From: an uncultured bacterium
GTDB taxonomy: Bacteria > CSSED10-310 > CAZUFC01
Reading direction: 5' to 3'
DNA length: 64,000 nt
NCBI GenBank assembly: GCA_964619725.1
Contig: CAZUFC010000019.1
Coordinates: 1,161-65,160, forward strand
Under the pieces are notes generated by a model that was not told the DNA's origin, did no database searches, and was given only the letters and a program-made list of their open reading frames with translations. Of the stretch, positions 1,205-63,805 are shown piece by piece. The number at the start of each line of letters is the position of its first letter. Position 1 is the first letter of the stretch. A program made the translations under genes and the position numbers.

Positions 1205-1549
1205 ATTCGTCAAACGATTTCAGGGACGGCATTCGGCGGACAAACCAGGTGATCGAAATGGCGATAGATAGGGTTCGTGAGAAACGCCGATGCCGAAGGA
1301 TCATTATTTTTTTCAGGTATAATATCAAGAGATTAAAATGATACCCCGGATTTTAAATACGATTTCATCGCCGGAACGCTCATGTTCCAAAAGATTATTG
1401 AGGGGCGCGCCGGAGGTCAGCGCAAGCGCGGTCAGGGTTGTCTTGAGCGATGCCAATGGAAGCAATGCTTGAAGATACTGGGGAAAGAACCCTGGCGGCA
1501 GGATTCGTATGCTTATTCCGGGTAAATGCTTTATGGGGGACAAATCAGC

Positions 1550-37644: not shown

Positions 37645-40600
37645 ATGAAACTTTTTAGGATGGCGAGAGTCTTGATTGTTTTTTTTGTTTTAATTTCAAT
37701 AAGTTGTTCAGCCCTGGGTCATTATGGAGGATTTTACGGATCAGACATGACCGGTTCGAAGGGATGGAGCGATGATCCGGCGGTGAATATACGCGTAAGT
37801 GCATCGCAGGGTGATCAGGCGAACCAGAGAGTAATTTCTGACGGTCAGGGGGGTTTCATCACGGCCTGGGAGAGGTTGGGGGATATATTTGTACAGCGGC
37901 TGGACGAATATGGCGAGCGCGACTGGGGAACCGAGGGAGTGACGGTATGCGGTGATGCTTCATTACAGGAGATGTCGGGTATATGTCGTGACGGTTCGGG
38001 AGGCGCCATAATAGTATGGAGGGATGCTCGGAACGGGGTTATGGGAATCTGGGGACAGCGAATCGGAGCATCCGGGAGTCCCATGTGGACCATTGACGGC
38101 GTGCAGGTATCGGGAAGCGGCGATTATACGGGAGGTCAGGCGATATCGGATGATGCCGGCGGGGTTTATGTTGTGTATGAGGGATCAGAGAGCGGAGTTT
38201 TTTGTACGAGGTTAGACGGGATGGACGGAAGCGAAATTTGGACCATTCAAACCGATGCATCCGGTATGCTGTGCAGTGGAACTGCGGCAGCGGAAGACGG
38301 AACGGGCGGAGTTTTGCTGGGATGGGAGAGGAGAAGCGTGCTGTTTTATGGAAAATTCGTGATGAGCATGGGAGGAGGAGCCAGGGACGACGGTTCGATA
38401 TATTTAAAGGATACTATAGGGCAATCATCGCCTCCTGGAGAATCAAGCGATGAGAATTACAGTGTGAAAGGTGGATTCTGGAAGCCTACGCATGCGAATT
38501 TGCCGATAAGCGAAAGCGATATATATGTGCAGAGACTTGATTCCGCCGGGACCGAATTATGGGGAGCCGGCGGCATATGTTTGTATGATACGTCTGAAGC
38601 GCAGAAAAATCCTCGAGCGGCATCAGACGGAAGCGGGTGCGGATTTTTCGTTTGGGAGGATATGAGGTCTCCGAGCAACACCAGGAGTCTGTATATACAA
38701 AAGATCGACAGTGGAGGTTCAATCGTATGGCGAGCTGACGGCGTTCAGGTATATGCCGGAGGAGCGAGCGAGTATGAGCTTATGAGTCATGCTGTAGTAT
38801 CGGATTCTGAAGGCGGAGCGGTCATAACCTGGTGTGCTGGGAATCGTGATGTTTATGCAACCCGAATAGACTCAAACGGAGATAATGCCTGGGGGGGAGA
38901 GGTCGCTCTAACGGATCACGAAGAGACGTCGGGTGTATCGGATTATCCCTATCAATCGGTATCGGACGGACTGGGCGGAGCGTTTACGGTATTTTCACGC
39001 CGGAACGAGCCGGCAAACAGTTATGAGATAGTATGTCAGAGCGTCGCGTATAATGGAAGTTTACCCTGGGGAATAAACGGAGAAGCGGTATGCATTTATG
39101 CTCAGGGAGAGCGGTATAACGCATTGGTTGCGAAATGCGACGGGAACATGACCGGCGCTCTATGTTGCTGGATTGACGAAAGGACAGTCGATTCGGAGGC
39201 CCTTTACGTAATGGGAATAAACCTCTACGGCGAACTCGGCGATCCCTGTTCGACGCTTCCTACAATAACGCCCACATTGACGCCTGTTCCGCCTACGCCG
39301 ACTCCTGAGCCGCCCACACTTACTCCGACTATTCCTCCGCCTCCGGCAGTCGTCTGGATCGACGATGACTTTAACGATTCGACTCCGGGCTGGGGTTACG
39401 ATCATTTTTCAGTCATTCAGGCCGGCTTGGATGCCGTGGCTGACGGCGGCGATATATATGTTGCTTCCGGTCTTTACAATGAAACAATCGGCTTCGATTC
39501 ATCATTTAATAAAAACAATATTTCCTTTTTCGGCGAATCCGGCGACAGACCGACGGTAGCAGGCGGCATGCATTTCGACAACGACGCAGCGATCTTAAAT
39601 ATTAACTTTGAAAACATGTATTTCAAAGGAGATGCCGGAGGTAATAATGCCGTAATAGGAATGACCAATTTGGGAGCTGTCCAGAATTTCAGCATGAAAA
39701 ACTGCGTTATAGACGGAGAAAACGCAATCGACAGGCATGGATTGGCCGGTAAAAACTTTGAGGGTTCTTTTTCCGTCACGGATACGGAGTTCAAGAACAT
39801 TTTGGGCTGGGCTGCAATGGATATGAACATCGACAGCCCGGATGGAGCGAATGAGCTGCCCATAAATTCGATCACATTCACAGGCAATTACATCCATGAT
39901 TCAAACGGGGTAACCGCTTTAAGGGGAAATGAAATCACGCGAAGCATCCTGGTTAATGTTGCCGATAATTCCTGGGACAACATCGGAGGAAACGGAGGAG
40001 CTGCAGGGGGACATTGGACGGCTCTGGAGGTCAACCATTCTGCAGAAGTAAACATCTACGGCAATGCGATCAACGATGTCAGCCAGGGGCAGAATTCTGA
40101 AGGCAAAGCGATTATCGTGTGGGATATTGTAGAGCTCATCTGCCGTTGCAATGATATAACGAACAATTATGAGGGCATATACGTTTACGGGGGCGGCGGC
40201 GTTTATGGCGGTCCTTATGCCGTGCCTTTCGGATATGTCGCATACAATAATATCATGAACAATTCCGAGTATGGTCTGACTGTCGATGATTATGCAACGG
40301 GGGACCCTCTAAGGGCCGACTTCAATTACTGGAATGCGGCTGACGGTCCGGGAGGCGATGCCGAGGGAAGCGGGGATGCTGTTTACGGTAATGCCGTGTG
40401 GGAGCCCTGGCTGAATGCAGTGCAGGAGCCGCCTTGTCCGCCTCCCTGTTACAATGACGGCGATGTCGACAATAACGGGAGTTTAACCCCGAATGACGGC
40501 ATGATGACATTCAGGATATACATCGGATACATTTCATATCCGACTTACGAAGAGGAGTGTTCTTCAGATTGTGACGGAAACGGTTATATATCACCTGGAG

Positions 40601-41271
40601 ATGGACAATGTATCTTCTGGAGTTATTTGGAGATGGGGTGCGAATGCGCTCAACCTGTGCAGAATTCCGTTCCGATGAACTATCCAGGTGAACAAAGAGA
40701 AAAGAAGAGCGACTCGCCGGATGCAATCAAACCGGAATATGGTAACCGGAAGATAATTGTCGGCTCTGCGCAGGGGTGCCGGAACGAAATCGTTTCCATA
40801 CCCATTATCATGGATAGTGCGGATGCCCCTGTCGCTTCCTTCGGATTAACTCTTCAATACGACGGCAATATTCTGGAGTTCGTAGATGTCGATCACGGAG
40901 AATTAACGGAAGAATGGTTCCTTCTCGATGCTTATCCTCAAAAACCCGGAATGCTCAAAGTGGGGGGATTCGATCTTTACTCTGAAATCCCCTCCAGAAC
41001 CCGGGGCGCCCTTGCATATCTGAATTTTAGAGTCGTCTGCGAGGAATGCGGAAACGGAGAACAAAGCGAATGCCGGATAACGGACCTGCTGGATGATATT
41101 AAACATTTTGAAGCGAAAGACGGCCGGTTTACTTATAACTGCATTTACCAGACCCCAACTGGAGTATTTCAGGAGATTCCCGCAATCATGCCCGGAGGAT
41201 TAATACTGCTTACCGGTTTAATTTCAGCGATATTTCTTTTTTCGATTTGCAGTATTAGAAGGCGAAAATGA
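37645..41271 (+). CDS. 1208-aa secreted surface protein: beta-propeller-like repeats, PT linker, beta-helix, dockerin-like, cohesin-like, IPTL-CTERM-like anchor
   Basis: SDG.GG....W.D.R.....I..Q..D..G...W repeats; PTPTP linker; PbH1 region; GDVDNNGSLTPND...DCDGNGYISPGD; G.....VSIPI.......V.SFGLTLQYD..ILEFV.V..G; tail IPAIMPGGLILLTGLISAIFLFSICSIRRRK. Confidence 0.9.
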   Translation: MKLFRMARVLIVFFVLISISCSALGHYGGFYGSDMTGSKGWSDDPAVNIRVSASQGDQANQRVISDGQGGFITAWERLGDIFVQRLDEYGERDWGTEGVTVCGDASLQEMSGICRDGSGGAIIVWRDARNGVMGIWGQRIGASGSPMWTIDGVQVSGSGDYTGGQAISDDAGGVYVVYEGSESGVFCTRLDGMDGSEIWTIQTDASGMLCSGTAAAEDGTGGVLLGWERRSVLFYGKFVMSMGGGARDDGSIYLKDTIGQSSPPGESSDENYSVKGGFWKPTHANLPISESDIYVQRLDSAGTELWGAGGICLYDTSEAQKNPRAASDGSGCGFFVWEDMRSPSNTRSLYIQKIDSGGSIVWRADGVQVYAGGASEYELMSHAVVSDSEGGAVITWCAGNRDVYATRIDSNGDNAWGGEVALTDHEETSGVSDYPYQSVSDGLGGAFTVFSRRNEPANSYEIVCQSVAYNGSLPWGINGEAVCIYAQGERYNALVAKCDGNMTGALCCWIDERTVDSEALYVMGINLYGELGDPCSTLPTITPTLTPVPPTPTPEPPTLTPTIPPPPAVVWIDDDFNDSTPGWGYDHFSVIQAGLDAVADGGDIYVASGLYNETIGFDSSFNKNNISFFGESGDRPTVAGGMHFDNDAAILNINFENMYFKGDAGGNNAVIGMTNLGAVQNFSMKNCVIDGENAIDRHGLAGKNFEGSFSVTDTEFKNILGWAAMDMNIDSPDGANELPINSITFTGNYIHDSNGVTALRGNEITRSILVNVADNSWDNIGGNGGAAGGHWTALEVNHSAEVNIYGNAINDVSQGQNSEGKAIIVWDIVELICRCNDITNNYEGIYVYGGGGVYGGPYAVPFGYVAYNNIMNNSEYGLTVDDYATGDPLRADFNYWNAADGPGGDAEGSGDAVYGNAVWEPWLNAVQEPPCPPPCYNDGDVDNNGSLTPNDGMMTFRIYIGYISYPTYEEECSSDCDGNGYISPGDGQCIFWSYLEMGCECAQPVQNSVPMNYPGEQREKKSDSPDAIKPEYGNRKIIVGSAQGCRNEIVSIPIIMDSADAPVASFGLTLQYDGNILEFVDVDHGELTEEWFLLDAYPQKPGMLKVGGFDLYSEIPSRTRGALAYLNFRVVCEECGNGEQSECRITDLLDDIKHFEAKDGRFTYNCIYQTPTGVFQEIPAIMPGGLILLTGLISAIFLFSICSIRRRK

Positions 41272-41488
41272 GTTTTCGCAGCCTTAAAATTCGTGTAAAG
41301 CATAAACACATCTCCTCGCAATTATTAATTCCGATTGCGATACTGACCCCGATAACCGAAACGAACGGTCCTCAATGAAAAAGAACCGCCCTGATTCAGT
41401 CAAATAGATATTTGGGGCAGATATCAGCTTTAGTATGAGGGATTTCAATATGCTCCGACATTTTCATGTCGGCAACTGAAAAGGAAGC

Positions 41489-41533
41489 GCAACGCAACAG
41501 CAATGCGCCTGAAGGGCTTTGCTGTTGCGTTGC
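41489..41533. terminator. Stem-loop between convergent genes (possible terminator or REP)
   Basis: GCAACGCAACAGCAA ... TTGCTGTTGCGTTGC, perfect 15-bp arms; no clear U-tract. Confidence 0.5.
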
Positions 41534-41581
41534 ATGGTTGGTCCGTCGCTCCAGCAGCGAGCGGATACATTTATAAACGAA

Positions 41582-44500
41582 TCAATCGTTTCTTTTGCTG
41601 CCTATCTTCCTGGTAAGGAAACCCATAGTGAGAATAAGGGTAATGATGCCGAACACAGAAAGAGCCGGGATGTCTCTGAAGCATGATTTTGAGGCTTGCT
41701 CGGTATTTCCGTAAGCGCCCATGTTGATGATGTCTCCATGCGGCGGGGGTTCACAATCACAAAGGTCTACTGGGTCTCCTGCGTCGATGCAAGGGGAACA
41801 GCTTTCATCCTCTCCCCAGGCGCCGTTATGATAGCTGCCGACGGTTGACTGGAGGTGGAAATCGCTGTTGTCCGGGTCTACGAATAAGGGGTCCTGATTC
41901 ATATTGCCTTCGCCTTCGAATCCGCCTTGCACGTTAGAGTAAGTCATATCGATGACGGATAAACCGGAAGTTCCAATTTCATTGGGGAAATTATTCCAGA
42001 AAATGCAATTTTTAATGGTGGGTGAAGAATTCATGCAATGCAGGGCGCCGGCGTTCATTTGTGCGGAATTTTCGCTGAAGGTGCAATTCAGAAAAGTGGG
42101 AGAGGAATACCAGCATTCGACGCCGCCTCCGTAATTTTGAGTTTCGTTGCCGATGATGAGGCAATTTTTAATGAGGACTTCGGGGTTGTCGCTGATGATG
42201 TGCAATCCTCCGCCCTGATCAACGGAAGAATTGTGAGCAATGGTGCAGTTTTCAAGAATGCAGCCAGAACCGATGTCAAAAAAGATTCCTCCGTTATGAA
42301 CGCCGAAGTTGTCGCTTATGTTGCAGCCGATAAAGTGCGGCGAGGCGCTGTAGCTTTCGACGGCGCCGCCGAAATCAGCGGAGTTTGAGGTTATATCGGT
42401 GTTCGTAATAGTCGGATTAGAGAAATCCCTGCAGTAGAGCCCTCCGCCCATGCCGCCGGCGGAATTTCCGGTGATGATGCAATCGGTGATGACAGGCGAG
42501 GATGTGCTGGTGCAATAGACTCCGCCGCCGTCGGAAGCGGAAACGCATGATTCGACAAAGCAATCCAGTATAGCGGGCGAGGAATTCTGAATGTAAATGC
42601 CGGCGCCGTAAGTGGCGTTGCAGTTGCGGACCGTGAACCCGCTGACGATTGTATCATTGCCTTCTCCCCGGAAAACAATGAAACCTCTGCCGTCGTTTTC
42701 GCAGTCTATAATGCTGTTTTCGGGTCCATTGACCGATGCGACAGTGATCGCCTTACCCATAAGATCGAGGTTTTTATTTCTATCGCCTGCGTATGTTCCT
42801 TCGTCGACGAGGACTGTATCGCAGTCAACCGCTGCATCAATGGCTTCCTGTATCGTCTGAAAATCCTGGGGCACCAGAATAGTCGTACAGACATGAGTAG
42901 GGGTGCTGGTGGGCGTAAGGACTTGAGTCGGGGTTAATGTCGGTGTGGGGGAGTATGGTTGACAGTTTTCATAGGTCAACTGGTAATTGAAATATCCGCA
43001 ACTTTCATAGGAATCAACGACTGCATAGTAAGTTCCGGGTTCGAGAGCGGTAAGCATTATGGTTTCGCCCTGGGCATCGCCGTTTTCATCTGCGTAGATG
43101 AAGCAGTCTTGCGGTTCCGGTCCATCCATAATGAGCAGAATGGGATCGTAGTCTCCGGGCGTGACGTTATCGATCTGAATCGTAACGTCGCAGTATTGGT
43201 TGTTAATGAAGACTATACCCAGGTCTTCCCCATTGAGCCCGGAAATACCGCATCCGTAATCCTGGTAATCGTCGAACCATCCGCAGTTGGTTTGAGGATT
43301 CGGAGTGGGGGTGTTGGGAGGGGTAGGAGATGGCGTGGATGTCAGGCAATTGTCGAGCGAATAGGAGAGGTTCCAGTATCCGCAACTTTCTTCAGCATCC
43401 ACGACTGCGTAGTAGTTGCCGGGTTCCATGGCTGGGACGGTGATGCTTTCGCCGAGTCCTGCTCCGTTATCGTCGGCATAAGCGAAGCAATAGAGCGGAT
43501 CAGGACCGTCAAGCAGCAGCAGAACGGGATCGTAATCGCCGGGAGTGACGCTATCGATGGCGATGGTTACGTCGCATACCTGCTGAACGACGAAGAAGGT
43601 AACGAAATCCTCACCGAAAAGATCATACATTCCGCAGGCGTAATTCTGCCAGTCGTCGTACCATCCGCAATTGGTTTGCGGTATAGGGGTTTCGGTCGGT
43701 ATAGGCGTCGGGGTCAGGCAATTGTCCATGGTTATCGAAATGTTCCAGAATCCGCAATCCTGATAAGAATCGACCGTTGCGTAGTATGTCCCCGGCTCCA
43801 TGGCCGTTATAGTTATGCTTTCGCCTTCCGCTGCACCGTAATCGTCGGCGTAGGCAAAGCAATATTGCGGACCGGGGCCGTCCAGCAGAAGCAGAACAGG
43901 ATCATAGTTTTCCGGAGTGATATTATCGATTGAAATAGTGACGTCGCAAGTCTGTTGCACTACAAAAAAGGTGATGAAGTCTTCACCGGCGAGACCGGTC
44001 GGTCCGCAGGCGTAGTCCTCGAAGTCATTAAACCATCCGCAGTTGGTCTGGGGGATGGGCGTATTAGTCGGGATGGCCGTGAAAGTGGGAGTATTCGTTG
44101 CGAACAGGGTTGGTGTGGGCGTAGGCGAATGAGAATTGTTCAGCATGAATGACAGGTCCCAGTACCCGCATGATTCATACGAATCGACCACTGCATAATA
44201 ATTTCCGGGCGCCATGGAATTGACCGTGATGGTTTCTCCCATTCCGGCCCCGTTGTCATCGGCATAGATAAAGCAGCTCTGAGGGTCAGCTTCGTTCAAC
44301 AGCAGAAAGACAGGATCGTAATCTCCCGGAGTGACGCCGGTGACAGTGAGGGTAACGTCGCATACTTCCTGGACCGTAAAGAAGGTTATGAAGTCTTCTC
44401 CATTCAGCCCGGTCAGCCCGCATGCGTAGTCCTGCCAGTCGTCGTACCACCCGCAGTTAGTTTGAGGAATAGGCGTTCGAGTAGGAATAGGCGTCGGGGT

Positions 44501-49516: not shown

Positions 49517-49737
49517 AAATGAATTCCTCCTCCTCAATTCGCCGTTCAATCAATGCACGACGAATAATTGAACATAAAAGATTAAATTAATTCATTAAGC
49601 TGTTTCTTTTTCGATTCAAAACTATGAAGCTAACGCCGGAAACCTTCCCCTGTCAGGATTAACATGTTTCAATATACAACCAGGTCAAGCCTTCCGGCGC
49701 ATCGCTTGAAATTAAACCGGTGAGAGATGATAATTGA

Positions 49738-52700
49738 TTATAAAATGTCGGTTCGTTTTTTCTTCGCTCCTTTCAGGGCAAGACATCCTAAAGAAAGGAT
49801 CAGGAGTATTATCCCCGTGACTGAGAAGGCGGGAATAGGCGCATAGCAAGATTTGGATGCCTGGTCCGTATTGCCGTAGGCTCCCATATTGATTTTGTTG
49901 CCGTGGGGCATAGGTTCGCAGTCGCAAGCATCGGCGGGATCGCCGGCATCGATGCAGGGGGAGCAGTTTTCATCCGCCCCCCAGGCGCCGTTGTGGTAGC
50001 TTCCGATAGTAGACTGCAGATGAAAATCGCCGTTGCCCGGGTCGACGAACAGCGGGTCCTGATCCATATTGCCTTCGCCTTCGAATCCGCCTTGCACGTT
50101 AGAGTAAGTCATATAAATGACGGATAGGCCGGAACTTACGATTTCATTGGGCAAATTGTTCCAGAAAATGCAATTCTTGACGACCGGGGCAGCATTCAGA
50201 CAATGGATGGCCCCGCCGTTCATTACTGCGGAATTCTCGCTGAATGTGCAATTCAGGAAAGTCGGACTAGAATACCAGCATTCGACGCCGCCTCCGTAGT
50301 TTTGCGTTTCATTTCCGATGATGAGGCAATTTTTTATGAGAGCATCGGGATTATCGCTGATGATGTGCAATCCTCCGCCCTGATCCACTGAAGAATTGTA
50401 AGCGATAGTGCAATTTTCCAGCACGCAGGCCGACCCGATGTCGAAAAAGACTCCGCCGTTGTGAACGCCATAGTTTTCGCTAATATTGCAGCCGATAAGA
50501 TGGGGTGAAGCGCTGTAACTTTCGATTCCTCCGCCGAATTGAGCTGTATTTGCTGTTATGTCTGTGTTGGTGATGACGGGGTTGGAGAAATCCCGGCAGT
50601 ATAATCCGCCGCCCATGCCGCCGGAAGTATTTTCCGTGATTATGCAATCGGTTACATTGGGTGAGGAAGTGCTGGAGCAGTAGAGTCCGGCGCCGTCGGA
50701 ATCGGAAATGCACGATTTCACAGTACATTCCAGGAGTGTCGGAGAAGAATTCTGGATGTATATTCCCGCTCCGTATGTTGCGTTGGCGTTGCGGACCGTA
50801 AGGCCGCTGATGACTGAGCCGCTTCCTTCTCCTCTGAATATGATGAAACCTCTGCCGTCGTCTTCGCAATCTATTATACTGTAATCCGGTCCGTTGACTG
50901 AGGTAACGGTAATCGCCTTGCCTTTCATATCGAGATTCTTGTTTCGGTCTCCGGTATAGGTTCCATCGTCGATCAGTACCGTATCGCAGTCAATCGCCGC
51001 ATCAATGGCGTGCTGTATCGTTGTATAGTCTTGAGGCACCTGAATGACGGTGCAGACATGGGTCGGCGTGCTGGAGGGCGTGATGGCTTCCGTCGGCGTA
51101 TAGGTCGGAGTGGGTGAATTCGACTGGCAGTTTTCAAAGGCTTGCTGGAAATTGAAGTAACCGCAGCTTTCGTAAGAATCGACGACCGCATAATAGTTTC
51201 CGGGCGGAAGCGCCGGCATGGTGATGGATTCTCCTTCTCCGGCCCCGTAGTCATCAGCGAAAATAAAGCAGGTTTCGGGTTCGGGTCCGCTCATGATGAG
51301 CAGCACGGGGTCATATTCCGGGGTGACGTTGCTGATGGTGATGGTAACGTCGCAGTATTCATGGTTCATGAAGAATATGCCGAGGTCTTCCCCGTTAAGG
51401 CCGGAAATTCCGCATCCGTATTCCTGGTAATCGTCGTACCAACCGCAGTTGGTTTGAGGATAAGGCGTAGGCGTGTCGGTGGGCGTGGGCAGTGGAGTCG
51501 ATGTTTGACAGTTGTCGAGGGAATAGATGAGGTTCCAGTAACCGCAATCCTCGTAAGAATCGACCACCGCATAATAGTTTCCCGGTTCCAGGGCTGCTAT
51601 GGTGATGGTTTCTCCCTGTCCCGTTCCGTTATCATCTGCATAGGCGAAGCAGTACATAGGCCCGGGTCCGTCAAGAAGCAGGAGGATCGGATCATAGTCG
51701 CCTGGAGTTATATTGTCGATGGAGAGCGTGACGTCGCAGACCTGGTTGACGACGAAGAAGGTGATGAAATCTTCACCGTACAGATCGCTTAATCCGCAGG
51801 CGTAATCCTGCCAGTCGTCGTACCATCCGCAGTTGGTTTGAGGAATAGGCGTTTCAGTAGGAATGGGAGTCGGAGTGATGCAATTATCCATGGAGAGCGT
51901 AATATTCCAGAAACCGCAATCTTCGTAAGAATCGACCACAGCATAATATGTGCCGGGTTCCATTCCGGGTATGGTTATGCTTTCGCCTTCTGCCGCGCCG
52001 CCGTCGTCGGCATAAATGAAGCAATTTTCAGGACCCGGACCGTCCAGAAGCAGCAGCACAGGATCGTAATTGGCCGGCGTCACGGTGTCGATACTGATGG
52101 TGACGTCGCAATGCTGATGAACGACGAAAAATGTGGCGAAATCTTCACCGTTAAGGCCTGTTATGCCGCATCCGTAATCCTGCCAGTCGTCGTACCACCC
52201 GCAGTTGGTCTGGGGAATAGGCGTATTGGTGGGAATAGCAGTGATTGTGGGCGTATTGGTTGCGAATATGGTGGGCGTCGGAGTCGGGGAATGACAATTG
52301 TTGAGTGAGAAGGTGAGGTCCCAGTAGCCGCAGGATTCATACGAATCGATGACGGCATAGTAATTGCCCGGAGCCAGTTGACTGACGTTTATGGTTTCGC
52401 CCTGTCCAGCTCCGTTATCGTCCGCATAAGCGAAACAGTTTGCGGGGTCCGGTTCGTCCAAAAGCAGTATGATCGGATCGTAATCCCCGGGCGTTATGTT
52501 GTTTATAGACAGCGTAACGTCGCATACTTCATGAACTGTAAAGAATGTGATGAAATCTTCACCGTCAAGGCCTGAGAGCCCGCATCCGTAATCCTGCCAG
52601 TCGTCGTACCATCCGCAGTTGGTCTGAGGCAAAGGCGTTCCTGTAGGAATGGGAGTAGGCGTCAGGCATTCGTCTATCGAAAGCGTCAAGTTCCAGTAAC

Positions 52701-55140
52701 CGCAGGATTCAAAGGAGTCGACTGCAATGTAGTAAGCTCCCGGAGCCAATGATGTAACCGTCAGAGTTTCTCCCTGCCCCTGGCCGTTGTCGTCGGCATA
52801 GGTTATGCAATGATCGGGGCCCGGACCGTCGAGCAGTATGAGTATCGGATCATACTCGCCCGGAGTCACGTTGTCCATGGCTATAGTGACGTCGCAGGTC
52901 TGATGCAGCATGAAAAAGGAGATGAAATCCTCTCCATTCAGGCCGGTGAGTCCGCTGCATGAGTAATCCTGCCAGTCGTCGAACCAGCCGCAGTTGGTCT
53001 GAGGAATGGGCGTGTTGGTCGGTATGACGGTCGGGGTCAGCGTCAACGTCGGCGTTGGAGACGCGCAATTGCTGAGGTTGTAGGTTATGTCCCAGTAACC
53101 GCAGTCGGCATAGGAATCTACGACGACATAATAGTAACCGGGCGCCATGGAATTGAGAGATAACGTTTCGCCCTGCCCGGCTCCGTTATCGTCGACGTAC
53201 CCTATGCAATGATCGGGGCCCGGACCGTCCAGGATAAGCAGTATGGGATCGTAAGCGCCCGGAGTGATGTTGTCTATGGTTAGAGTTACGTCGCATACTT
53301 CAGGTACAGATATGAAAGTGGCGAAATCTTCGCCTTCCAGTCCCGTAAGGCCGCAGGCGTAATCCTGCCAGTCGTCGAACCAGCCGCAGTTGGTTTGAGG
53401 AATAGGCGTTCCGGTGGGTATGGGCGTTGGCGTCTGACAGTTTTCTATCATGAGAGTGAAGTCCCAGTAACCGCAACTTTCATAAGAGTCTACGACGGCA
53501 TAATAGTATCCCGGCTGCAGAGCCTGCAAGGTAACGCTTTCGCCCTGTCCGTCTCCGTTGTCGTCGGCGTAGGCAATGCAATGTTCGGGTCCCGGTCCGT
53601 CCAGGATAAGCAGTATGGGATCGTAATCGCCGGGTGTGACGTTATCGATAGTCAAGGTCACGTCGCATACCCCGTTCACAACGAAAAATGTTATGAAATC
53701 TTCTCCCGCCAGTCCCGTAAGGCCTCCACAGGCGTAATCTTCCCAATCATTGCCGTATCCGCAGTTGGTCTGGGGAATAGGCGTTCCGGTCGGCACAGGA
53801 GTCGGCGTAAGAGTGTTAGAAGGGGTACGTGTAGCGGTCCTGGTGGGCGATAAAGTAACCGTCGGCGTCCAGGTAGGCGTCCAGCTCGGCGGAGGCGTCA
53901 TCGTCCAGGTGGCGGTCGGCGTCATTGTCGGCGTATTCGACGGCCCGTACAACGTGGTCGGGGTCCTCGTAGCCGTAGGCGTTCGCGTCGCCGGCTCAGG
54001 CGTTTCCGTCGTGCATGATTCAATGGTGAATTCGGCATAATCTACCTGGCCCGTTACATCCCCCAGGCTGGTCCTGAATCCTATGAAACCGGCCGCAAAT
54101 TCCAGCCTGCTTGTTCCCAGTACAGCATTTTCCTTTACATGCATCATTATGTAGTAAACATTCGTTGCATTATCTCCAATGGTCCAGCCAGGATACGGAT
54201 CAGGAGCGGATTTAGAATAATGAAATCCATTGGGGTATCCAGGCCAGTCGTTGCCGTACGATGAATCTTCCATGGCGGAAGGCGGAACGAAATCCGTGTG
54301 CAATACCGGCGGACTGAAAACCAGCGGATCATAAGTAAACGCGGCATCAATGCCTTCAATCGTTACCTGACTAATGTTAGGATCGAAACGGATCGCCATT
54401 GGGAAAGTAGAGCCTCGACATTGAGTCCCCGAGGAAGGAAAGAAAAATACGTGACCTACCGCCAGAGGCGTCTCCGTCGGAACGGGAGTGCAAGGTGTAG
54501 GAGACGGAAGGCCGACGATGGTATAAGTCCCGCTGCCGATTGTTCCCAGTAGCGGACCGCTCTCGGCGCTGAATCCTATGAACCCGTCAGCGAAATCGAT
54601 GGTGGTCGGACCCGCCGGAGCATACTGCTTGATGGGGAACATTAATGTATGTACGTTATTATCCCCATCCGTTACAGTCCACCCAGGCTGTTCCGCGAGT
54701 TTCACCCTGGCGTAATGATAGCCGTCCGGGTCAATAGGCCAGTTGTTTCCCAGTGATGTATCGGTCATTTCTGAATCAGAAATGTAATCCGTAGTCAATA
54801 TCGGATCATCAAATACGGCTGGATCAAAGGTTATCGCGGCGTCCAATCCGGCAACCGTGGCCGAAGCCAGGTTAGGATCGAAAACAATAGTAACCGTCAA
54901 TGAATCTCCGGGATAAAACGTACCGGTATCGGGACTCAAGGCTACGCTTCCCGGCCCAGGCGTTGGAGTAGATTTCGGACCGTCTGCTGTTGCCTGTTGA
55001 GGAATCATTGAGGTAAAAACAACACCTGTTAAAAGAGCGATCATGAGCGTTCTCACGATGCTCACTCTTAATCCTGACCACGATGATATGACAGGAAATT
55101 TTCCCCTCTGAGGGGAGAGAATTTTTTGCAGAGTTTTCAT
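49738..55140 (-). CDS. 1800-aa surface protein: two N-terminal cohesin-like domains, PT linkers, seven PQTNCG modules, C-terminal beta-helix, IPTL-CTERM-like anchor (scaffoldin candidate)
   Basis: V.L.P......G....V.I.FD.....V.G.DAA.T(F/Y)DP.VF twice; C-terminal ~1080 aa colinear with 41582..49516; tail IPAFSVTGIILLILSLGCLALKGAKKKRTDIL; GGGAGG RBS. Confidence 0.9.
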   Translation of the reverse strand: MKTLQKILSPQRGKFPVISSWSGLRVSIVRTLMIALLTGVVFTSMIPQQATADGPKSTPTPGPGSVALSPDTGTFYPGDSLTVTIVFDPNLASATVAGLDAAITFDPAVFDDPILTTDYISDSEMTDTSLGNNWPIDPDGYHYARVKLAEQPGWTVTDGDNNVHTLMFPIKQYAPAGPTTIDFADGFIGFSAESGPLLGTIGSGTYTIVGLPSPTPCTPVPTETPLAVGHVFFFPSSGTQCRGSTFPMAIRFDPNISQVTIEGIDAAFTYDPLVFSPPVLHTDFVPPSAMEDSSYGNDWPGYPNGFHYSKSAPDPYPGWTIGDNATNVYYIMMHVKENAVLGTSRLEFAAGFIGFRTSLGDVTGQVDYAEFTIESCTTETPEPATRTPTATRTPTTLYGPSNTPTMTPTATWTMTPPPSWTPTWTPTVTLSPTRTATRTPSNTLTPTPVPTGTPIPQTNCGYGNDWEDYACGGLTGLAGEDFITFFVVNGVCDVTLTIDNVTPGDYDPILLILDGPGPEHCIAYADDNGDGQGESVTLQALQPGYYYAVVDSYESCGYWDFTLMIENCQTPTPIPTGTPIPQTNCGWFDDWQDYACGLTGLEGEDFATFISVPEVCDVTLTIDNITPGAYDPILLILDGPGPDHCIGYVDDNGAGQGETLSLNSMAPGYYYVVVDSYADCGYWDITYNLSNCASPTPTLTLTPTVIPTNTPIPQTNCGWFDDWQDYSCSGLTGLNGEDFISFFMLHQTCDVTIAMDNVTPGEYDPILILLDGPGPDHCITYADDNGQGQGETLTVTSLAPGAYYIAVDSFESCGYWNLTLSIDECLTPTPIPTGTPLPQTNCGWYDDWQDYGCGLSGLDGEDFITFFTVHEVCDVTLSINNITPGDYDPIILLLDEPDPANCFAYADDNGAGQGETINVSQLAPGNYYAVIDSYESCGYWDLTFSLNNCHSPTPTPTIFATNTPTITAIPTNTPIPQTNCGWYDDWQDYGCGITGLNGEDFATFFVVHQHCDVTISIDTVTPANYDPVLLLLDGPGPENCFIYADDGGAAEGESITIPGMEPGTYYAVVDSYEDCGFWNITLSMDNCITPTPIPTETPIPQTNCGWYDDWQDYACGLSDLYGEDFITFFVVNQVCDVTLSIDNITPGDYDPILLLLDGPGPMYCFAYADDNGTGQGETITIAALEPGNYYAVVDSYEDCGYWNLIYSLDNCQTSTPLPTPTDTPTPYPQTNCGWYDDYQEYGCGISGLNGEDLGIFFMNHEYCDVTITISNVTPEYDPVLLIMSGPEPETCFIFADDYGAGEGESITMPALPPGNYYAVVDSYESCGYFNFQQAFENCQSNSPTPTYTPTEAITPSSTPTHVCTVIQVPQDYTTIQHAIDAAIDCDTVLIDDGTYTGDRNKNLDMKGKAITVTSVNGPDYSIIDCEDDGRGFIIFRGEGSGSVISGLTVRNANATYGAGIYIQNSSPTLLECTVKSCISDSDGAGLYCSSTSSPNVTDCIITENTSGGMGGGLYCRDFSNPVITNTDITANTAQFGGGIESYSASPHLIGCNISENYGVHNGGVFFDIGSACVLENCTIAYNSSVDQGGGLHIISDNPDALIKNCLIIGNETQNYGGGVECWYSSPTFLNCTFSENSAVMNGGAIHCLNAAPVVKNCIFWNNLPNEIVSSGLSVIYMTYSNVQGGFEGEGNMDQDPLFVDPGNGDFHLQSTIGSYHNGAWGADENCSPCIDAGDPADACDCEPMPHGNKINMGAYGNTDQASKSCYAPIPAFSVTGIILLILSLGCLALKGAKKKRTDIL

Positions 55141-55159
55141 TTCTGTTTCCCCTCCCCTT

Positions 55160-58100
55160 TCAGTTAGATGTCCCGGTGATTTTTTGCTCTGTTCCTCTGA
55201 TTTCCGCTGCAGTTTGTTTACTGGCTCCTTTATTCATTTCCAACAGGAGCGTTTTATCCAGGGCAACGCCGTAAAAGCCCGGAACGAGATCGAGCTTTGA
55301 TTCGTATTCAGGGCCGGAAAAACCGACGGAAGTTCGGAGCGGGAACCTCAAACGGTAGAGAATATTGGCGCCGGCGGGCACTTTTATGCCGGTTTGCCCC
55401 GGTAATGCCCCTTTGCTGTAATGGTAGACATCAGGCAAGTCTGGAGCTCCGAGCCCCTTCGAGAAATCGGTCATGCCTTTCGTCAAAAAGTCTGCCGTCA
55501 TTTGAGGTTTTCCGAGAAATGCCGGATCATAAGCTATGGCGGCATCGACGGCGATTAGAGTATCCGGGGATTCAGCGTTGTAAATGACGTCAACTTCTAT
55601 GTAAGGCCAATCAGCGACGCCTGTCTCCCTTACTTTCAGTTCAAATTCTCCTGAATCGGTTTTTTCTGAAGCCATGTCTTTTGCCGGGAATCCCGGTGCG
55701 AAAGAGACCCGTCCGTTCTGATTCAACCATTCGGAATAGTCCGCTGAATTGACTGCAGAGTCGCCGTTGAAGTCCGCTCTTTCATCCCAGTTTCCTGATC
55801 CGGGCGTACTGCCGTTGGCGAGCAGCCAGATAATGAAATCGATCGATGCGTTAACGTAAGCATCTCCGTTGGCATTGCCGCCCCGCAATGAAATCATTCC
55901 GTCAACTTCATCGCCCAGAGGATCAATACCGTAGCATGGCTCGAACGTCAGATCGTCTTCGTCAGAAAGGTTAATGTTGGCCGTCGTTCCGTAATTCACG
56001 TTGACCATGTTCTCGGTGATTACTTTCAGGTGATTCAGATGAGAAACAGTCAAAAAGAGATCGCCGCCGGGACAACCCGTCAAATCGATATTCCCGGTCT
56101 GCCCATTCGCATTCAGCGGTATGTCTTCATAAGAAGCCACAACTGTATCAGCCGTCTCAGGCGTGGTTCCGAAACGAAACTCTATATCGATCGTGGTGGG
56201 CCGCTGGCTTCCCACAAGATAAAAACCATCCAGGTATGCCGTCAGATTGAAAGTCGGCGGTCCTGCATATTCGTCAGCGCCTATGTCGTAGAAGAAGAAG
56301 CGGTCGTTTCCATCGTAGTCGTAAAGAGTCGTCGAGGGTTCGGCGACATTAGAACCGAAATCTATGCATGGTGAAAGCATCTGTATGTGGTAATCGCCTT
56401 GGCCTACGAATAAGGGATCGGCAGAAATATTTCCTATGCCGGCATCCCCGTCCTGTATGTCGCTGTAAGTCGCTGAAACGCCTTCGATATCGTCGCTGTG
56501 GTCCCAGACGATGCAGTTGATGATGTTCAGGGAGCCTGCATTCTTGTATATGCCGTAATTACCGTTGCTGACTATCGTGTTGTTGACGATATCGACGTTG
56601 GGCCCTCCCGTATGCCAGTATATGCCATGTCCGCCGTTATTAGTGATGAATGAGTTGGTCAGTATGACCGTGTCGTCTGAATAACTGTATATTCCGTCGC
56701 CGCCCGACCAATTGTTGGGAATTGCTGTGGAATCGTTGCCGTCGATATTAAGTCTGTCAAGAGTCACCGATGATACGTCGTCGTTTATGTATATTCCTGC
56801 ACCGTAGCCGTATCCATAATCATATGAGCTGTAACCTGATCCCTGACCCTTGGCGACATTATCATAAATCAGAGTATTCTCAATTACCTCAACCTTGGCA
56901 TCAGTGTTGATGAAAATACCGCCGGCATACCCGTAACCGTAACCTCGACCGTTATATGCCGTGTTATGACCATAGGCGTAGGAGGTGTTTTCCTTTATGA
57001 TGCAATGACTGATAGTCATCGTTTCAGCCGTTGAATTACAGAAGAGCGCTGCGCCGTAAGAATATCCGTACGAATATCGCCCTTGATTGCTGTTTGAGAC
57101 ATAACTGTAAGCCCAGTTCCCTGTGAAGTAATTAGCGTCAATATCAGGGGCTCCTTCAAGTCCAATGTAAACAGCGCCTCCGTAGCTATAACCGTAGATG
57201 TGTCCGCCGTAGTTCTGGGAGATATAACAACGAGCCTGGTTGGCGGTAAATGTGTTTCCGTATACCTGTGAATCGCCGTTCATGCAGATCGCTCCGCCCC
57301 TGCCGCTGGAATTGCGACCGGTTGAATAAGCCCAGTTGCCGTCGAATTCATTGTTTAGAATCTGAGGTGAGGCCGTATCGGAACAGAAGAGCCCCCCGCC
57401 GTATACGATTGATGACGTGAAGGCATTGCTAGCCATATTCCCTGAAAAGGCATTGCCGGAAATGATCACTGTATCGTCTACATCGATGCAGGCTAATCCG
57501 CCGCCGACGAAGGAAGAGGTATTTTCCAGGAAAAGGTTATCCTCAACCGCGCCCAAAGCCGACGTTTCAATAAATAATCCGCCGCCGTATCCTGCTTCAG
57601 TCCCAACGACGCTGTTGTACATAAAGCTGCAATCGTGTACCCAGAATGCGTAACAACGACCGAAATACGCTCCGCCTCCTCTTACGTAATTGCCGCTTTC
57701 GCCGCCGATATTGGTCTCAAAAACGCAATTCCTCACGATAACATGTTCGCAGTCGTAAACGAATAATCCAGCTCCCGCATTTTCTTCACCATGTCTGACG
57801 GTAAATCCGTCAAAAATGACGTCGGCGGCGCCCTGGATCATTACGACTGAATTCCTGTAACCGCCGTCTATCAGAGTTATATTTGCATGGGGATCGCGTT
57901 CTCCGCCGCCTATGGGATAACCGCCCAGAACCGTGGTGTCGCTGCCGATCTCAATATTTTCATGGTAGACCGCACGAGCCACATGAATAAAGGAATCAGG
58001 ACCGGCGATGCTTAAGGCGCCGTTAATGCTCGCCTTGGCCGTCGCCCAACTGAGGCCGTTATTACTGTCGTTGCCGTTAACTTTGTCCACATAGAAATTT

Positions 58101-61100
58101 GCCGCCGGCGTTGCCGTATATGTTCCGACAGGCGTCGGAGTGTTCGGCGTTACGCTCGGTTGCGGCGTCGGATTGATCGACTGGGTCTCATCCGCTCCGA
58201 TATCGACGATAAGACCGTTGTATGGGCGCGTATCTCCGTCATAATCGGTCAATGGCGCCAGGGTGTTTAGCCCCCGATCCACGCAGCAGGAGCTCGGCAA
58301 GATGTGATAGTCGTCAATGCCGACGAATTCAGGATTGCAAGGCGGCGTCAGGTTTCCCTGTCCCGGATCGCCGCCCTGAATATTGCTGTAGGTCGCTGTT
58401 ACAGCTTCCAGGTCATCGTTGTTCCCCCAGAGGATGCAATTCCGAATCGTGGGAACCGCTCCTTCCGTCCCTCTTATGCCGTATCCGGGATTGTAAGCGA
58501 TAGTGTCGTTAACGAATTCAGGCGTGCCTCCGTAAAGGTATATGCCGGTGCCCGCATTTTCGACCACAAATGTGTTGTATACTCTGGCTGATGACTCCTG
58601 AATGTAAAGGCCGTATCCAGTAGAAGCGTTATTCGGAGAAGCGCTTAAATTATTGTTTTTTATCAGCGCCCCGTCAAACTCTACATCGTTTAACCCCCCA
58701 TTGATGTAGACTCCGCCTCCGCGGGCATATGCATAATCATAGGAACCGTATCCTGCGCCTGAAGCTGTACAAAGACTGCCTTCAATCCTCGTGCTTCCGC
58801 CGATAAACGCTACTGTTTCGTCGGTGATGTAAATGCCGCCGCCGTATGCGTAGCCCCTGCCGCGACCATTGTAAGACGTATTCTGTCCGTAGGCTTGAGC
58901 TGTACTGCTTCTTATAATATCGCCTTTCATCTCCAGATCGCATCCTGCATCGCAAAATACTGTACCGCCGTAAGCAATTCCCTGACCGTAATACCCCTGG
59001 GAAGTGTTCCTGGCATCAGCATGCGCCTTGTTATTCTCATAGACATTTCCCCAGGATTTCACCGTGCAACCGTCCGCACAGTACAATGCTCCGCCGTAAG
59101 CATACTCCGTGAGCGTAGAGCCATATCCGCCGCTATAATACGTATAAGCCAGGTTGTCGGAAATGGTGTTGGACTGGAGCGTTAATTCTCCGTCGCAATA
59201 AATGCCGCCGCCTCTCGTAGTTCTGCCTTGAGCATTAAGTATTTGAATCGTGTTGTTGGAAATCGAGTTACCTTCAGCGTAACAGGAGCCTGCAGAGTGT
59301 ACGTAAAGACCGCCGCCGCGATTGCTGGTGGAGCCCCCGTAACAGAGGTTGTTCTCGATTGTATTGTCTTCCAGATGAACCGTCGAATCCGCTGCGTGCA
59401 CCGATACTCCGCCGCCGGCGTGACCTGATGTGTTGGCGAGTATCTCGTTACCGCTAATGACGATTTTATATCCGCCGCCGCAGTAAATTCCGGCTCCGTA
59501 TGCTGCATCACCCTCAGCTATGTTGTTCTCGATCAGATTGTCGCCTACGAATATATTAACGCCCTCAAGATAAAGGCCGCCGCCGCATGCCAGATTACGG
59601 GCGCCGGGACTGCCGTAAGTGACGTTTTCCTGGATTTTATTATTGGTGATGTTGACGTTTTCAGAACGGCTTACAGTAATGCCTGCTCCATAATCTCCAA
59701 CGCCGTTCGTGACCATAAAGCCGTCTATTTCAACATTTTTAACCTCCGATACCGTCATCACGGGATCATAAGCATCGCCGTCGACTACCGAAGGATAAAC
59801 GTCAGGATTCCTAATTCCTCCGCCCGGGGGATACCCGCCCCATAAATAGAGGTTATCCGTGCACACCAGGTTTTCCACGTAAACATGCCCCGTCACATGG
59901 ACGTAAGCGCCGCCGGCCGCTTCAGCCAGTTCAATCGCCGCGGTTATGCTCGCCTTGGCCGTTCCCCAGCTTAATCCGTCATTCAAATCGTCGCCGTATA
60001 ATCCGTCAACGTAATAATGGTCCGAAGGCGTCGGTTCAGGCGTCGGCGTTACGGCCGGCGTTGCGTAGGCCGTCGGTGAGGGATTGATGACGTCGACTTC
60101 ATCCGCCCCCAGATCGGGAATGCCTCCTGCATAGGGACGAGGATCGTCGTCGAAATCATGATCGCGAATGTCGTCGTAACTCCCCCTGTCGACACAACAG
60201 GATTGCGGCTGCAAATGATAGTCTCCGCCGCCGACGAACAGAGGATCGCATGGCGGACTTAAGTTGCCTTCGCCGGGATCCTTGCCCTGTATATTGCTGT
60301 ATGTGGCGGAAACGCCTTCCAGATCATCGAGATTGCCCCACAATATGCAATTTCGTATCACTGGAGCGCTTCCTTCTGTTCCATAGATTCCGTAACCGTC
60401 GTTATAGACTATAGTATCGTTGATGATCATCGAATTGCTCGAATAAAGATAAACCGCCGTATCAGGATGTTCTGCGATGATCGAATTGTAAATATCTACG
60501 CTGACATCCGATATGTACAGGCCGTAGCCGCGAAGCTGCGTGGCAGGACTGGCCGTAATATTGTTGCCGCGGATTACGGCGCTGTCGATATCCACATCAC
60601 AATCCGGTCCGTAAACCGCTATGCCGCCGCCCCGGGAATAAGCATAATCATAGCTGCTGTACCCTGCGCCCGCAGCCTGACACCGGTTGTCTTCAACTAT
60701 GGATTTTAAATTGATGTTGACGGTCGATAAGTCGGCACAGTGGACGCCTCCGCCGTATGCATAACCGGAACCGCGACCGTTGTAGGCCGTATTCACCCCG
60801 TAAGCGTAACAGGTGTTCGCCGACAGCGTATCGCCGCTTAACGTCACATCTCCGCCGCCTTCGCAGAATACCGCGCCTCCGTAGGCGAAACCCTGTCCGT
60901 AATAACCCTGACTGCTGTTGCGCCCTTCAGCGTGTGCAAGATTTTCATTATAAATGTTGCCGATGGAATGAACTATACCGCCGTCAGCGCAATATAGCGC
61001 GCCGCCGTAAGAACACTCTGTCAAAGTGGCGCCGTAACCTCCGTTGAAATAATTATAAGCCAGATTCCGCTCAATGACGCCGTTCACCATCGTTAAATTT

Positions 61101-63805: not shown

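Follow-up and report, generated by a model that had tools for sequence, protein, structure and literature searches.

Introduction

The pairing of cohesin with dockerin modules is textbook knowledge for cellulosomes, for which we take as the relevant clostridial examples C. thermocellum, with the X module–dockerin (X-Doc) unit of CipA and the cohesins of SdbA and OlpB, and A. cellulolyticus, with ScaA, ScaB and ScaC. In this work we analysed, entirely in silico, a stretch of 64,000 nucleotides (the window; contig CAZUFC010000019.1, positions 1,161 to 65,160) from an uncultured outer-membrane-bearing bacterium of a microbial mat, in which four large open reading frames (ORFs), here named P1 to P4, lie next to each other. 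The main subject is a gene pair formed by P3, a giant protein without an anchor that ends in a dockerin followed by a cohesin, and P2, which starts with two cohesins and ends in a candidate anchor tail. We consider it fairly probable that P3 would be tethered in trans to the cohesins of P2, and that the locus would represent one cassette of a genome-wide display system.

The locus shares with the clostridial cellulosomes the presence of tandem cohesins on a cell-bound protein, a C-terminal dockerin with two calcium loops on the guest and the clustering of the genes; in addition, P3 resembles an adaptor scaffoldin in carrying both module types. In fact, the modules of this locus match the solved complexes 2y3n, 3kcp, 4uyp and 6kgf. 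It departs from them, however, in several respects. No glycoside hydrolase (GH), polysaccharide lyase or carbohydrate esterase family was found in P1–P4 (Pfam, E<=1), nor any carbohydrate-binding module (CBM), P2 included, in agreement with an earlier note on this DNA, which had described the cargo as devoid of a recognisable GH domain. The cargo consists instead of beta-helix proteins of 1200–12000 aa in a diderm cell, the anchor is an [IV]PA tail of the exosortase-signal type rather than SLH or LPXTG, the giants end in one dockerin and then one cohesin, and the dockerin of one of the two families found here (family A) has six cysteines. Several cohesins, as in a scaffoldin, are present (two in P2, one to five in the other scaffolds) and a CBM is not; since carbohydrate-active enzyme cargo and a CBM-bearing scaffoldin were looked for and not found, we do not regard the locus as a cellulosome.

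Cohesin and dockerin modules outside cellulosomes are already established. A protein of A. fulgidus carries both modules and recognises itself, and non-cellulosomal modules were reportedly treated by Peer et al. in 2009. Our locus is similar to these in having cohesins and dockerins in a setting other than cellulose breakdown, in some cases within a single polypeptide. According to the consulted part of a later article (PMC9012536), multi-cohesin scaffoldins are lacking in the archaea that Peer et al. surveyed; the present genome, by contrast, has at least 14 scaffolds of one to five cohesins, each in a fixed two-gene cassette. For anaerobic methanotrophic (ANME) archaea the same part infers dockerin and cohesin proteins, including scaffoldin-like ones with up to five cohesins; they differ from our case in the archaeal envelope, and no cassette of giant plus scaffold or dockerin–cohesin tandem is reported there (PMC9012536). 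A cellulosome-like complex with a scaffoldin of several cohesins was inferred for 'Ca. Stygibacter' (Cloacimonadota), where GHs and peptidases are the dockerin-bearing enzymes and the scaffoldin combines CBMs with a C-terminal domain of the type IX secretion system (T9SS); again, neither the giant-plus-scaffold cassette nor the dockerin–cohesin tandem is reported in the consulted part of the source (PMC8542988).

Closest to our pair are two neighbouring genes of the Chlorochromatium epibiont, Cag_2038 with a C-terminal dockerin and Cag_2037 with an N-terminal cohesin (bioRxiv 10.64898/2026.03.19.712371). As far as the consulted portion of that preprint goes, both cases share a diderm cell, large surface proteins, binding deduced from structure prediction and a lyase- or epimerase-like cargo that is not a cellulase; the Cag genes differ in being a single pair with type I secretion (T1SS)/RTX export, devoid of a dockerin–cohesin tandem, a multi-cohesin scaffold and an exosortase-type tail, whereas the present genome has at least 15 cassettes in two orthogonal families. 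The 'Dockerin-type' giants of Omnitrophota have a different architecture. Within the consulted portions of the main texts of this literature, we found no giant-plus-scaffold cassette, no invariant C-terminal dockerin–cohesin tandem and no two orthogonal families per genome, and likewise no cysteine-rich dockerin and no cohesin–dockerin system with an exosortase-type anchor.

Results

Architecture of the P3–P2 gene pair

The four ORFs claimed by the earlier note are all present in the ORF list and its translations (Table 1), and their N-termini, as read from the translations, all resemble signal peptides. In P3, a signal peptide is followed by four PbH1 beta-helix units, each accompanied by a choice-of-anchor-Q domain, and the C-terminus holds the dockerin and the cohesin. 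Pfam assigned Beta_helix to it with 188.8 bits over eight stretches, plus NosD, and NCBIfam found choice_anch_Q in four stretches. The C-terminal end of P3 is hydrophilic and without a hydrophobic tail; the picture of an unanchored protein ending in a dockerin-like and a cohesin-like domain, the third of its local family, thus agrees in its coordinates with what had been noted. P2 is composed of a long signal peptide, two cohesins, PT linkers, PPC/DVUA0089-family (NF038127) repeats, a beta-helix, a disaggregatase-related end and the tail, which confirms the tandem N-terminal cohesin-like domains and the C-terminal anchor attributed to it. The neighbouring P4 also has PPC repeats, Beta_helix and a disaggregatase-related end (Pfam), with NosD/beta-helix units in place of the cohesins; no cohesin or dockerin was found in it. 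As the best local alignment between P2 and P4 covers residues 507-1796 of P2 at 68% identity, we read P2 as a P4-like anchored surface protein with two extra domains at its N-terminus. Taken together, the Pfam matches in P1–P4 comprise Beta_helix, NosD, PPC and Disaggr_assoc, as well as a cohesin above the cut-off in P1 (whole-protein scan).

P3 and P2 lie on the same strand, and the gap of 19 nt between the stop of P3 and the start of P2, to which the earlier note drew attention, is real. The gap contains a Shine-Dalgarno-like site (GGAGG), P2 is read in a different frame from that of P3 and has its own signal peptide, a layout that is operon-like. The possibility that both are a single ORF separated by read-through or fission was rejected because the frames differ and P2 has a ribosome-binding site and a signal peptide of its own. 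A contig from a second sample spans the P3/P2 junction (55094..55293) with zero differences. The contigs of the likely source run branch at 55769..55804, in dockerin-coding sequence common to the paralogues, with a loose end that leads into other sequence; a contig of another sample spans this branch inside the repeat (55720..55926) with no differences. The assembly is broken by paralogous repeats, and second-sample contigs bridge both the branch point and the junction.

The modules of P3 and P2 as cohesins and dockerins

The three domains of P3 and P2 that had been grouped as one local family, family B in this work, are homologous: BLASTP gave significant similarity between P2 cohesins 1 and 2 (41% identity, E 1e-40), between P2 cohesin 1 and the P3 cohesin (35%, E 2e-16) and between P2 cohesin 2 and the P3 cohesin (29%, E 8e-10). 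The motifs pointed out beforehand correspond to conserved columns in a 14-row alignment of family-B cohesins (A2), in which D46, A47, S75, H88 and Y89 are invariant. Eight isolated segments were scanned with Pfam and their scores compared with the gathering cut-offs (24.1 bits for Cohesin, PF00963; 22.9 bits for Dockerin_1, PF00404). P2 cohesin 1 obtained 24.5 bits as an isolated segment, barely above the cut-off, and 22.4 bits in the whole-protein scan, and other scaffold-type cohesins on contig C106 obtained 30.1, 29.8 and 25.0 bits, each above it. The last 252 residues of P3, searched with phmmer against 1.84 billion representatives, retrieved 84 proteins at E<=1e-3, three of them at E<=1e-30. 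Pfam was run on 41 of the 84 and found Dockerin_1 in 20 (14 above the cut-off) and Cohesin in eight (six above it); the order dockerin then cohesin also occurs in some short proteins of this set (P0081, P0086). NCBIfam gave nothing useful on the dockerin–cohesin and cohesin–cohesin segments.

As for the dockerin, the profile of a 12-row alignment (A1) matched the solved dockerin 2y3n_B at E 3.6e-11. Loop 2 of the P3 dockerin (DFNGDSAVNSAD) is a canonical calcium loop, and loop 1 (NANGDAYVNASID) starts with N and is longer by one residue; in the AlphaFold models of both P3 and P1, each calcium loop is followed by a helix. The dockerin–cohesin segment of P3 was modelled with a mean predicted local distance difference test (pLDDT) value of 69 and a predicted TM-score (pTM) of 0.58, the dockerin having pLDDT 51-80 and the beta-sandwich (model residues 91-220) 72-93 in blocks of 10 residues. 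In VIA, model residues 91-222 were superposed on CaCohA2 (6kgf_C) with Z 10.7 and a root-mean-square deviation of 2.7 A over 118 residues; the top 46 entries of the ranking are all cohesins (Z 7.6-10.7), and the first other fold appears at Z 7.4. With Foldseek, the first match of the P3 model is a GH9 enzyme with CBM3c (8u49, E 9.9e-5), and cohesins dominate the list. For the modelled segments of P3 and P1, the outcome in which the domains would model as unrelated folds did not occur, and by fold and alignment profile the modules are cohesins and dockerins as had been proposed. A T9SS C-terminal domain was another candidate identity for the last domain of P3 and was rejected, the fold being that of a cohesin.

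The beta-rich module that precedes the P3 dockerin is kept in all eight paralogous giants and in the phmmer protein P0007. Two X-Doc chains, 3kcp_A and 2b59_B, were matched by the A1 profile over both the X module and the dockerin (E 5e-5 to 8e-5), with the X part coming from rows other than P3, and Pfam found nothing for P3 residues 2440-2640 at E<=10; judging from these matches, the stretch may be an Ig domain similar to the X module.

Predicted complex of the P3 dockerin with P2 cohesin 1

We predicted the complex of one pair, P2 cohesin 1 (with alignment A2) and the P3 dockerin (with alignment A3), in the presence of two calcium ions. The interface score ipSAE was 0.61 (0.59, 0.61 and 0.66 in the separate runs), and the best of three controls had 0.00; the runs agreed in at least 87% of the contacts, and the pLDDT of the partners was at least 77. 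The mark set for ipSAE is reached by 116 of 157 solved complexes and by two of 215 mismatched pairs. The model supports the binding of the P3 dockerin to P2 cohesin 1, such that the anchored P2 appears, through this cohesin, as the predicted partner of the unanchored P3, in line with the proposal of the earlier note.

In the predicted interface, the dockerin would make contact through helix 1 and the end of helix 3, and the cohesin through residues 43-48, 74-82, 88-95 and 132-144 of the 161-aa segment, which coincide with the conserved motifs of family B. Several of the contact positions separate the scaffold-type cohesins of this family from those at the ends of the giants; for example, position 80 is W in all eight scaffold-type rows and A, Y, S or E in the six giants, and G44 is kept in six of the eight scaffold-type rows and replaced by A in all six giants. 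These differences hint that the cohesin at the end of a giant binds another partner, or binds with another affinity, than the scaffold cohesins do.

Recurrence in the genome and in the phylum

The assembly is a metagenome bin of 9.17 Mb in 344 contigs, 91% complete by marker genes and with an estimated contamination of 6.5%; among the sequencing runs listed for 53900..56500 there are four of DNA, all microbial-mat metagenomes from one study, and none of RNA. Outside the window, ORFs were taken from stop to stop, such that their start positions are approximate. The Pfam models found 34 cohesin and 13 dockerin matches in this genome, and searches based on the modules of the window itself recovered many more, with 33 dockerin-bearing ORFs in two unrelated cohesin/dockerin families, A and B. 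Family B has eight giants of 2889-3514 aa, all ending in the same conserved dockerin and cohesin, and its scaffold-type proteins, namely P2, C106_11521, C106_23999 and two cut by contig ends, start with one to three cohesins. Family A comprises 25 ORFs with a cysteine-rich dockerin at the C-terminus, in most of them followed by a cohesin, in proteins of up to 12092 aa; there are 12 cohesin-only proteins with one to five tandem cohesins. Their 32 cohesins roughly match in number the 25 dockerin-bearing ORFs.

In 15 of the 33 cases (11 of family A and four of family B), a cohesin-only gene follows directly downstream on the same strand. Thirteen of these 15 downstream genes encode the anchor tail, and the other two, of family B, are cut by contig ends; a 16th dockerin ORF lies one gene further upstream in such an array. 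Conversely, five dockerin ORFs carry the tail themselves (P1, C7, C34 and two on C182), and none of them has an adjacent cohesin-only gene. A further eight are located at the end of a contig or on a short contig, or are fragmentary. The anchor belongs either to the dockerin protein itself or to the socket protein beside it, a complementarity that would be expected were the sockets to provide anchoring in trans.

A tree of 50 family-A cohesins showed the scaffold and giant labels to be clustered, with three changes against a mean of 14.8 for shuffled labels, and the cohesins of the giants to be more divergent, on long branches. The giants' cohesins of C97, C20 and C64, in turn, share a clade (99 in the Shimodaira–Hasegawa-like approximate likelihood-ratio test, SH-aLRT) with the cohesins of their own neighbouring scaffolds.

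The phylum is represented by 14 genomes including this one, and the closest kin among the species genomes searched belong only to the same phylum. The full family-B dockerin and cohesin module was not found in 30 other genomes, where G013 has partial X-Doc matches; it is also present in a few metagenomic proteins. The family-A module, on the other hand, was found in 10 of the phylum's 13 other genomes; the highest count, 85 matches, comes from a genome of 4.6 Mb. A genome of a different family of the phylum (G005) encodes an unanchored NosD/beta-helix protein with the cysteine-rich dockerin and cohesin at its end, and about 150 nt downstream lies the gene of a signal-peptide protein with at least three cohesins. 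The arrangement of an unanchored dockerin giant followed by a cohesin-only gene therefore recurs at 15 loci in this genome and in one genome of another family, and the survey of synteny in related genomes suggested at the outset found the P1-type cassette again in G005. A search of genome contigs with the A1 profile gave 34 loci, mainly of Planctomycetota and Chloroflexota, which matched at the level of the dockerin only, except for two (L014, L040) that extend weakly past it at 29% identity.

The start of the family-B scaffolds has features of its own. The signal peptides of P2 (54985..55140), C106_11521, C215_9314 and C93_3 have an unusually long n-region, of 30-40 residues, ahead of the hydrophobic core; three of these four proteins begin with MK..[F]..LPP, and P2 begins with MKTLQKILSP.

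P1 and the second family

P1 adds a second, separate and far larger cohesin/dockerin family, family A, which the earlier note overlooked: the dockerin-like and cohesin-like pair that it had placed ahead of the P1 anchor is indeed there, although it belongs to a different family from that of P2 and P3. As an isolated segment the P1 cohesin obtained 37.9 bits against the Pfam cut-off of 24.1, and it has no BLASTP similarity detectable to the three family-B domains. Its model matched type I cohesins in Foldseek at E 4e-13 with TM-scores of 0.71-0.78, and the non-cellulosomal cohesin 2xdh of A. fulgidus is among its best structural matches (TM-score 0.75).

The link of the P1 dockerin to known dockerins is moderate as far as the sequence comparisons go. 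Pfam gave no Dockerin_1 match for the isolated segment and only EF-hand matches at E 0.013-0.14; its two loops (DVDNNGSLTPND and DCDGNGYISPGD) are both canonical. In hhalign, the alignment of P1-type dockerins matched that of P3-type dockerins with a probability of 70% (E 4e-5), and the P1-type profile found 4uyp_B in the PDB at E 0.015. The AlphaFold model has three helices with pLDDT above 90. The cysteines C11, C48, C52, C65, C75 and C77 are invariant in all 15 rows of the alignments A4 and A5, and six invariant cysteines around two EF-hand loops suggest a disulfide-stapled dockerin. The dockerin–cohesin segment of P1, modelled together with an alignment of 14 paralogues (A4), reached pLDDT 86 and pTM 0.80 with a disordered linker of 20 residues. 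A homologue search with P1 residues 925-1208 retrieved only P1 itself (among proteins of 664-2114 aa).

Two further observations concern P1 and its family. Residues 1-560 of P1 (37645..39324), for which Pfam gave no significant match, form a unit of which the ORFs of 6404 aa (C8), 6399 aa (C2) and 12092 aa (C34) contain about nine tandem copies. Elsewhere (G000:C12:40015-40775), a family-A dockerin and cohesin without the giant N-terminal part are split by an in-frame TAG, and this is probably a decayed copy.

The anchor tail and the cell envelope

P1, P2 and P4, and likewise nearly every scaffold, end in [IV]PA followed by a hydrophobic stretch and basic residues. A pattern of this kind, [IV]P[ASTLV] plus a hydrophobic and a basic part, is crude; it was present in 187 of the 8185 ORFs with a length of 150 aa or more and in two of 4398 internal control segments. 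The ORFs that carry it include P1, P2 and P4 and many giants, of 12092, 6404, 6399, 6140 and 5416 aa. The PEP-CTERM/PGF-CTERM paradigm is the basis for reading such a tail as a sorting signal. The genome has one gene of the exosortase/archaeosortase family, on C134, which encodes 190 aa and matches TIGR04178 with 65.7 bits (cut-off 23); its nearest subtypes, under their cut-offs, are archaeosortase B (78.2 bits, cut-off 150) and exosortase H (76.6 bits, cut-off 86). From the recurrence of the tail, the single exosortase gene and the absence of a curated match, we read the tail as an undescribed variant of an exosortase-type signal: by analogy, it is probably an exosortase/archaeosortase sorting signal, and it may represent an undescribed CTERM class.

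The diderm envelope that had been presumed was borne out by six Omp85 and seven secretin matches in the genome and by efflux genes of the resistance-nodulation-division (RND) type in the window. A separate ORF of 847 aa (L071, G000:C12:72037-74577) has tetratricopeptide (TPR) repeats, Secretin_N, Secretin (121 bits), an acidic linker and a C-terminal cohesin-like domain that obtained 21.8 bits when the protein was scanned and 25.6 bits in the scan of the genome. Judged by its domains, this secretin with a socket could be a place where dockerin-bearing proteins are held or handed over.

Discussion

The reading that we favor for the locus is the following. P3 and P2 would be exported, each by its own signal peptide, and P2 would be held at the cell envelope by its C-terminal tail of the [IV]PA type, with its two cohesins displayed at the distal N-terminus. 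The C-terminal calcium-loop dockerin of P3 would then bind one of the cohesins non-covalently, such that the beta-helix protein of 2881 aa is displayed on P2; its cargo part would be similar to an adhesin or a polysaccharide lyase, and not a cellulase. More generally, unanchored giants would be anchored in trans by the neighbouring scaffold and P1-like proteins in cis. What we observed comprises folds, homology and a recurrent gene order; the binding, its calcium dependence, the processing of the tail and the surface exposure are deductions.

The role of cohesins and dockerins outside cellulosomes has so far been mostly a list of domain matches. In the present genome the arrangement follows an unusually clear logic, in that the anchor is carried in cis or comes from a neighbouring socket gene; this pattern is repeated 15 times and involves two orthogonal families. 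The P1-type cassette is, moreover, conserved across a phylum without a cultured member in the set searched. If the binding is true, it would be a way for a diderm to display very large surface proteins (up to 12092 aa) non-covalently, it would offer synthetic biology two orthogonal, calcium-dependent and possibly disulfide-stabilised connectors, and it would open a way to study the surface biology of the 'dark matter' of microbial mats.

Several of our results weigh against this tethering. In the sequence searches, P2 cohesin 2 and the P3 cohesin had no Pfam match at E<=10 as isolated segments, and the P3 dockerin obtained 18.8 bits (E 0.002), under the cut-off; the A2 profile of family-B cohesins had 5lxv_A at E 0.24 as its best match among the PDB sequences, and hhalign gave a probability of 2.5% for A2 against the family-A cohesins. 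Of the modules named beforehand, the models PF00963 and PF00404 thus recovered the P1 cohesin and P2 cohesin 1, and missed P2 cohesin 2, the P3 cohesin and both dockerins; as the sequence profiles fell short, the cohesin status of the P3 domain and of P2 cohesin 2 rests on the fold and on transitive homology. The calibration of the ipSAE value is only rough, since our own alignments and a riding ligand were used, and a pass may show likeness and not binding, since many cohesin–dockerin complexes have been solved. The prediction covers a single pair, and specificity (cohesin 1 versus cohesin 2, the P3 cohesin itself or family A) lies outside it. In the genome, four of the 33 dockerin ORFs (C18, C25, C171 and C203) are unanchored giants with neither a tail nor an adjacent scaffold. 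As to the tail, NCBIfam searched with the last 50 residues of P1, P2 and P4 at E<=10 gave only midcut_by_XrtH, at E 0.1, in P2, and in a diderm the C-terminal helix would sit in the inner membrane. Furthermore, the dockerins of both families sit beside a cohesin on their own chain (in family A, in most of the 25 ORFs), and the self-anchored proteins retain a dockerin although anchoring would not require one.

These last two points could be accommodated if each dockerin–cohesin tandem closes on itself as a clasp at the foot of the giant, with the scaffold cohesins binding other things or serving as spacers and the adjacency of the genes reflecting shared ancestry or co-regulation, not binding. 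We hold such a clasp in cis to be unlikely as the explanation of the locus. It is consistent with the order dockerin then cohesin on the same chain and with linkers of about 17-60 residues that could permit the contact, and the pTM of 0.80 for the P1 tandem, despite its disordered linker, exceeds the value of about 0.55 that domain-size arithmetic gives for the cohesin alone and so implies a confident relative pose of dockerin and cohesin, which counts against a purely trans arrangement. AlphaFold, however, is prone to dock any dockerin on any cohesin within reach, the model of the P3 tandem is unsure of its pose (as seen in its pTM and in the pLDDT of the dockerin), and the P3 dockerin was predicted to dock on P2 cohesin 1 while the controls stayed at 0.00. 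The outcome that would have overturned the original proposal, pairing only within one chain, is in part suggested by the models: the P1 model implies docking in cis, and the P3 dockerin is predicted on a cohesin of another chain. A clasp also leaves 32 + 6 scaffold cohesins without a ligand and does not explain why the anchor lies in cis or, complementarily, on the scaffold next door; no dockerin-only class of family A or B was found among the examined modules, and yet C101, C116, C131_15194 and C265 are without a cohesin match.

The same tandem, one plug and one socket per giant, could alternatively let the dockerin of one giant bind the C-terminal cohesin of the next in a daisy chain or lattice, with the scaffolds only starting or ending the chains; the self-anchored proteins (P1, C7, the 12092-aa C34 and C182) could link laterally in this manner, and the clade shared by giant and scaffold cohesins of C97, C20 and C64 means that one dockerin type might see both. 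We regard chaining of this kind as improbable, given that the family-B giant cohesins differ as a group at several predicted contacts, among them W80 and G44, and that in family A the giant and scaffold labels are clustered on the tree and the giants' cohesins are divergent. The self-chaining of P3 into branched polymers, which the earlier note had put forward, is therefore not supported, though it is not refuted either. It seems very improbable to us that the cohesin-fold domains are beta-sandwiches for sugar binding or spacing, with the dockerin-like repeats being plain calcium-binding stabilisers: the first Foldseek match with its CBM3c, the other CBM3 chains in that list and the marginal Pfam scores of the family-B domains speak for it, but the VIA ranking places 46 cohesins ahead of any other fold, the predicted contacts would be carried by the dockerin helices, and the strict co-occurrence of plug-bearing and socket-only genes at 15 loci would be left unexplained. 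Tethering in trans and these alternatives are not mutually exclusive.

As a speculative extension of the tethering in trans, and one we think rather doubtful, much of the cell surface in this small, deep-branching phylum might be built from dozens of beta-helix or adhesin giants per genome, plugged via two orthogonal pairs, one with a so far undescribed disulfide-stapled dockerin, into exosortase-anchored multi-socket proteins and joined by head-to-tail links, giving a non-covalent, calcium-dependent, reconfigurable lattice, a diderm counterpart of an S-layer or a fibrillar coat made with cohesins and dockerins.

Features of the locus and neighbouring genes

Table 1. Positions in the window of the four ORFs of the locus and of the modules, tails and sites assigned in them.
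Feature	Position	Strand	Remarks
P1	37645..41271	+	1208 aa; self-anchored; family-A dockerin and cohesin ahead of the tail
P1 dockerin, family A	40447..40656	+	residues 935-1004; two EF-hand loops, six cysteines
P1 cohesin, family A	40747..41151	+	residues 1035-1169; Pfam 37.9 bits
P1 anchor tail	41170..41268	+	EIPAIMPGG, hydrophobic stretch, RRRK
P4	41582..49549	-	2655 aa; anchored paralogue of P2
P4 anchor tail	41585..41734	-	
P2	49738..55140	-	1800 aa; anchored; two cohesins
P2 anchor tail	49741..49845	-	IPAFSVTG, hydrophobic stretch, KGAKKKR
P2 cohesin 2, family B, scaffold subtype	54010..54459	-	residues 228-377; BLASTP to cohesin 1
P2 cohesin 1, family B, scaffold subtype	54502..54951	-	residues 64-213; Pfam 24.5 bits
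Shine-Dalgarno-like site	55149..55157	-	GGGGAGGGG (GGAGG); in the P3/P2 gap, 10 nt ahead of the P2 ATG
P3	55160..63805	-	2881 aa; no anchor; C-terminal dockerin and cohesin
P3 cohesin, family B, giant subtype	55241..55651	-	residues 2719-2855; BLASTP to P2 cohesin 1, and fold
P3 dockerin, family B	55700..55888	-	residues 2640-2702; two calcium-loop/helix repeats, GGNANGDAYVNASIDF... and ADFNGDSAVNSADYS...
Pre-dockerin beta-rich module of P3	55889..56200	-	about residues 2536-2639

A surface-protein island covers most of the window. Apart from P1–P4, it holds a protein of 645 aa with collagen triple-helix repeats (1526..3463, plus strand) and a beta-helix protein of 1898 aa with a TSP3 repeat (3777..9473, minus strand), which has the same [IV]PA-type anchor tail as P1, P2 and P4. 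An unusual ORF of 1344 aa (23883..27917, minus strand) fuses an RND-type transporter (ACR_tran, MMPL) to a C-terminal ABC ATPase, and it adjoins an ordinary AcrB, an HlyD-type adaptor and a separate ABC ATPase.

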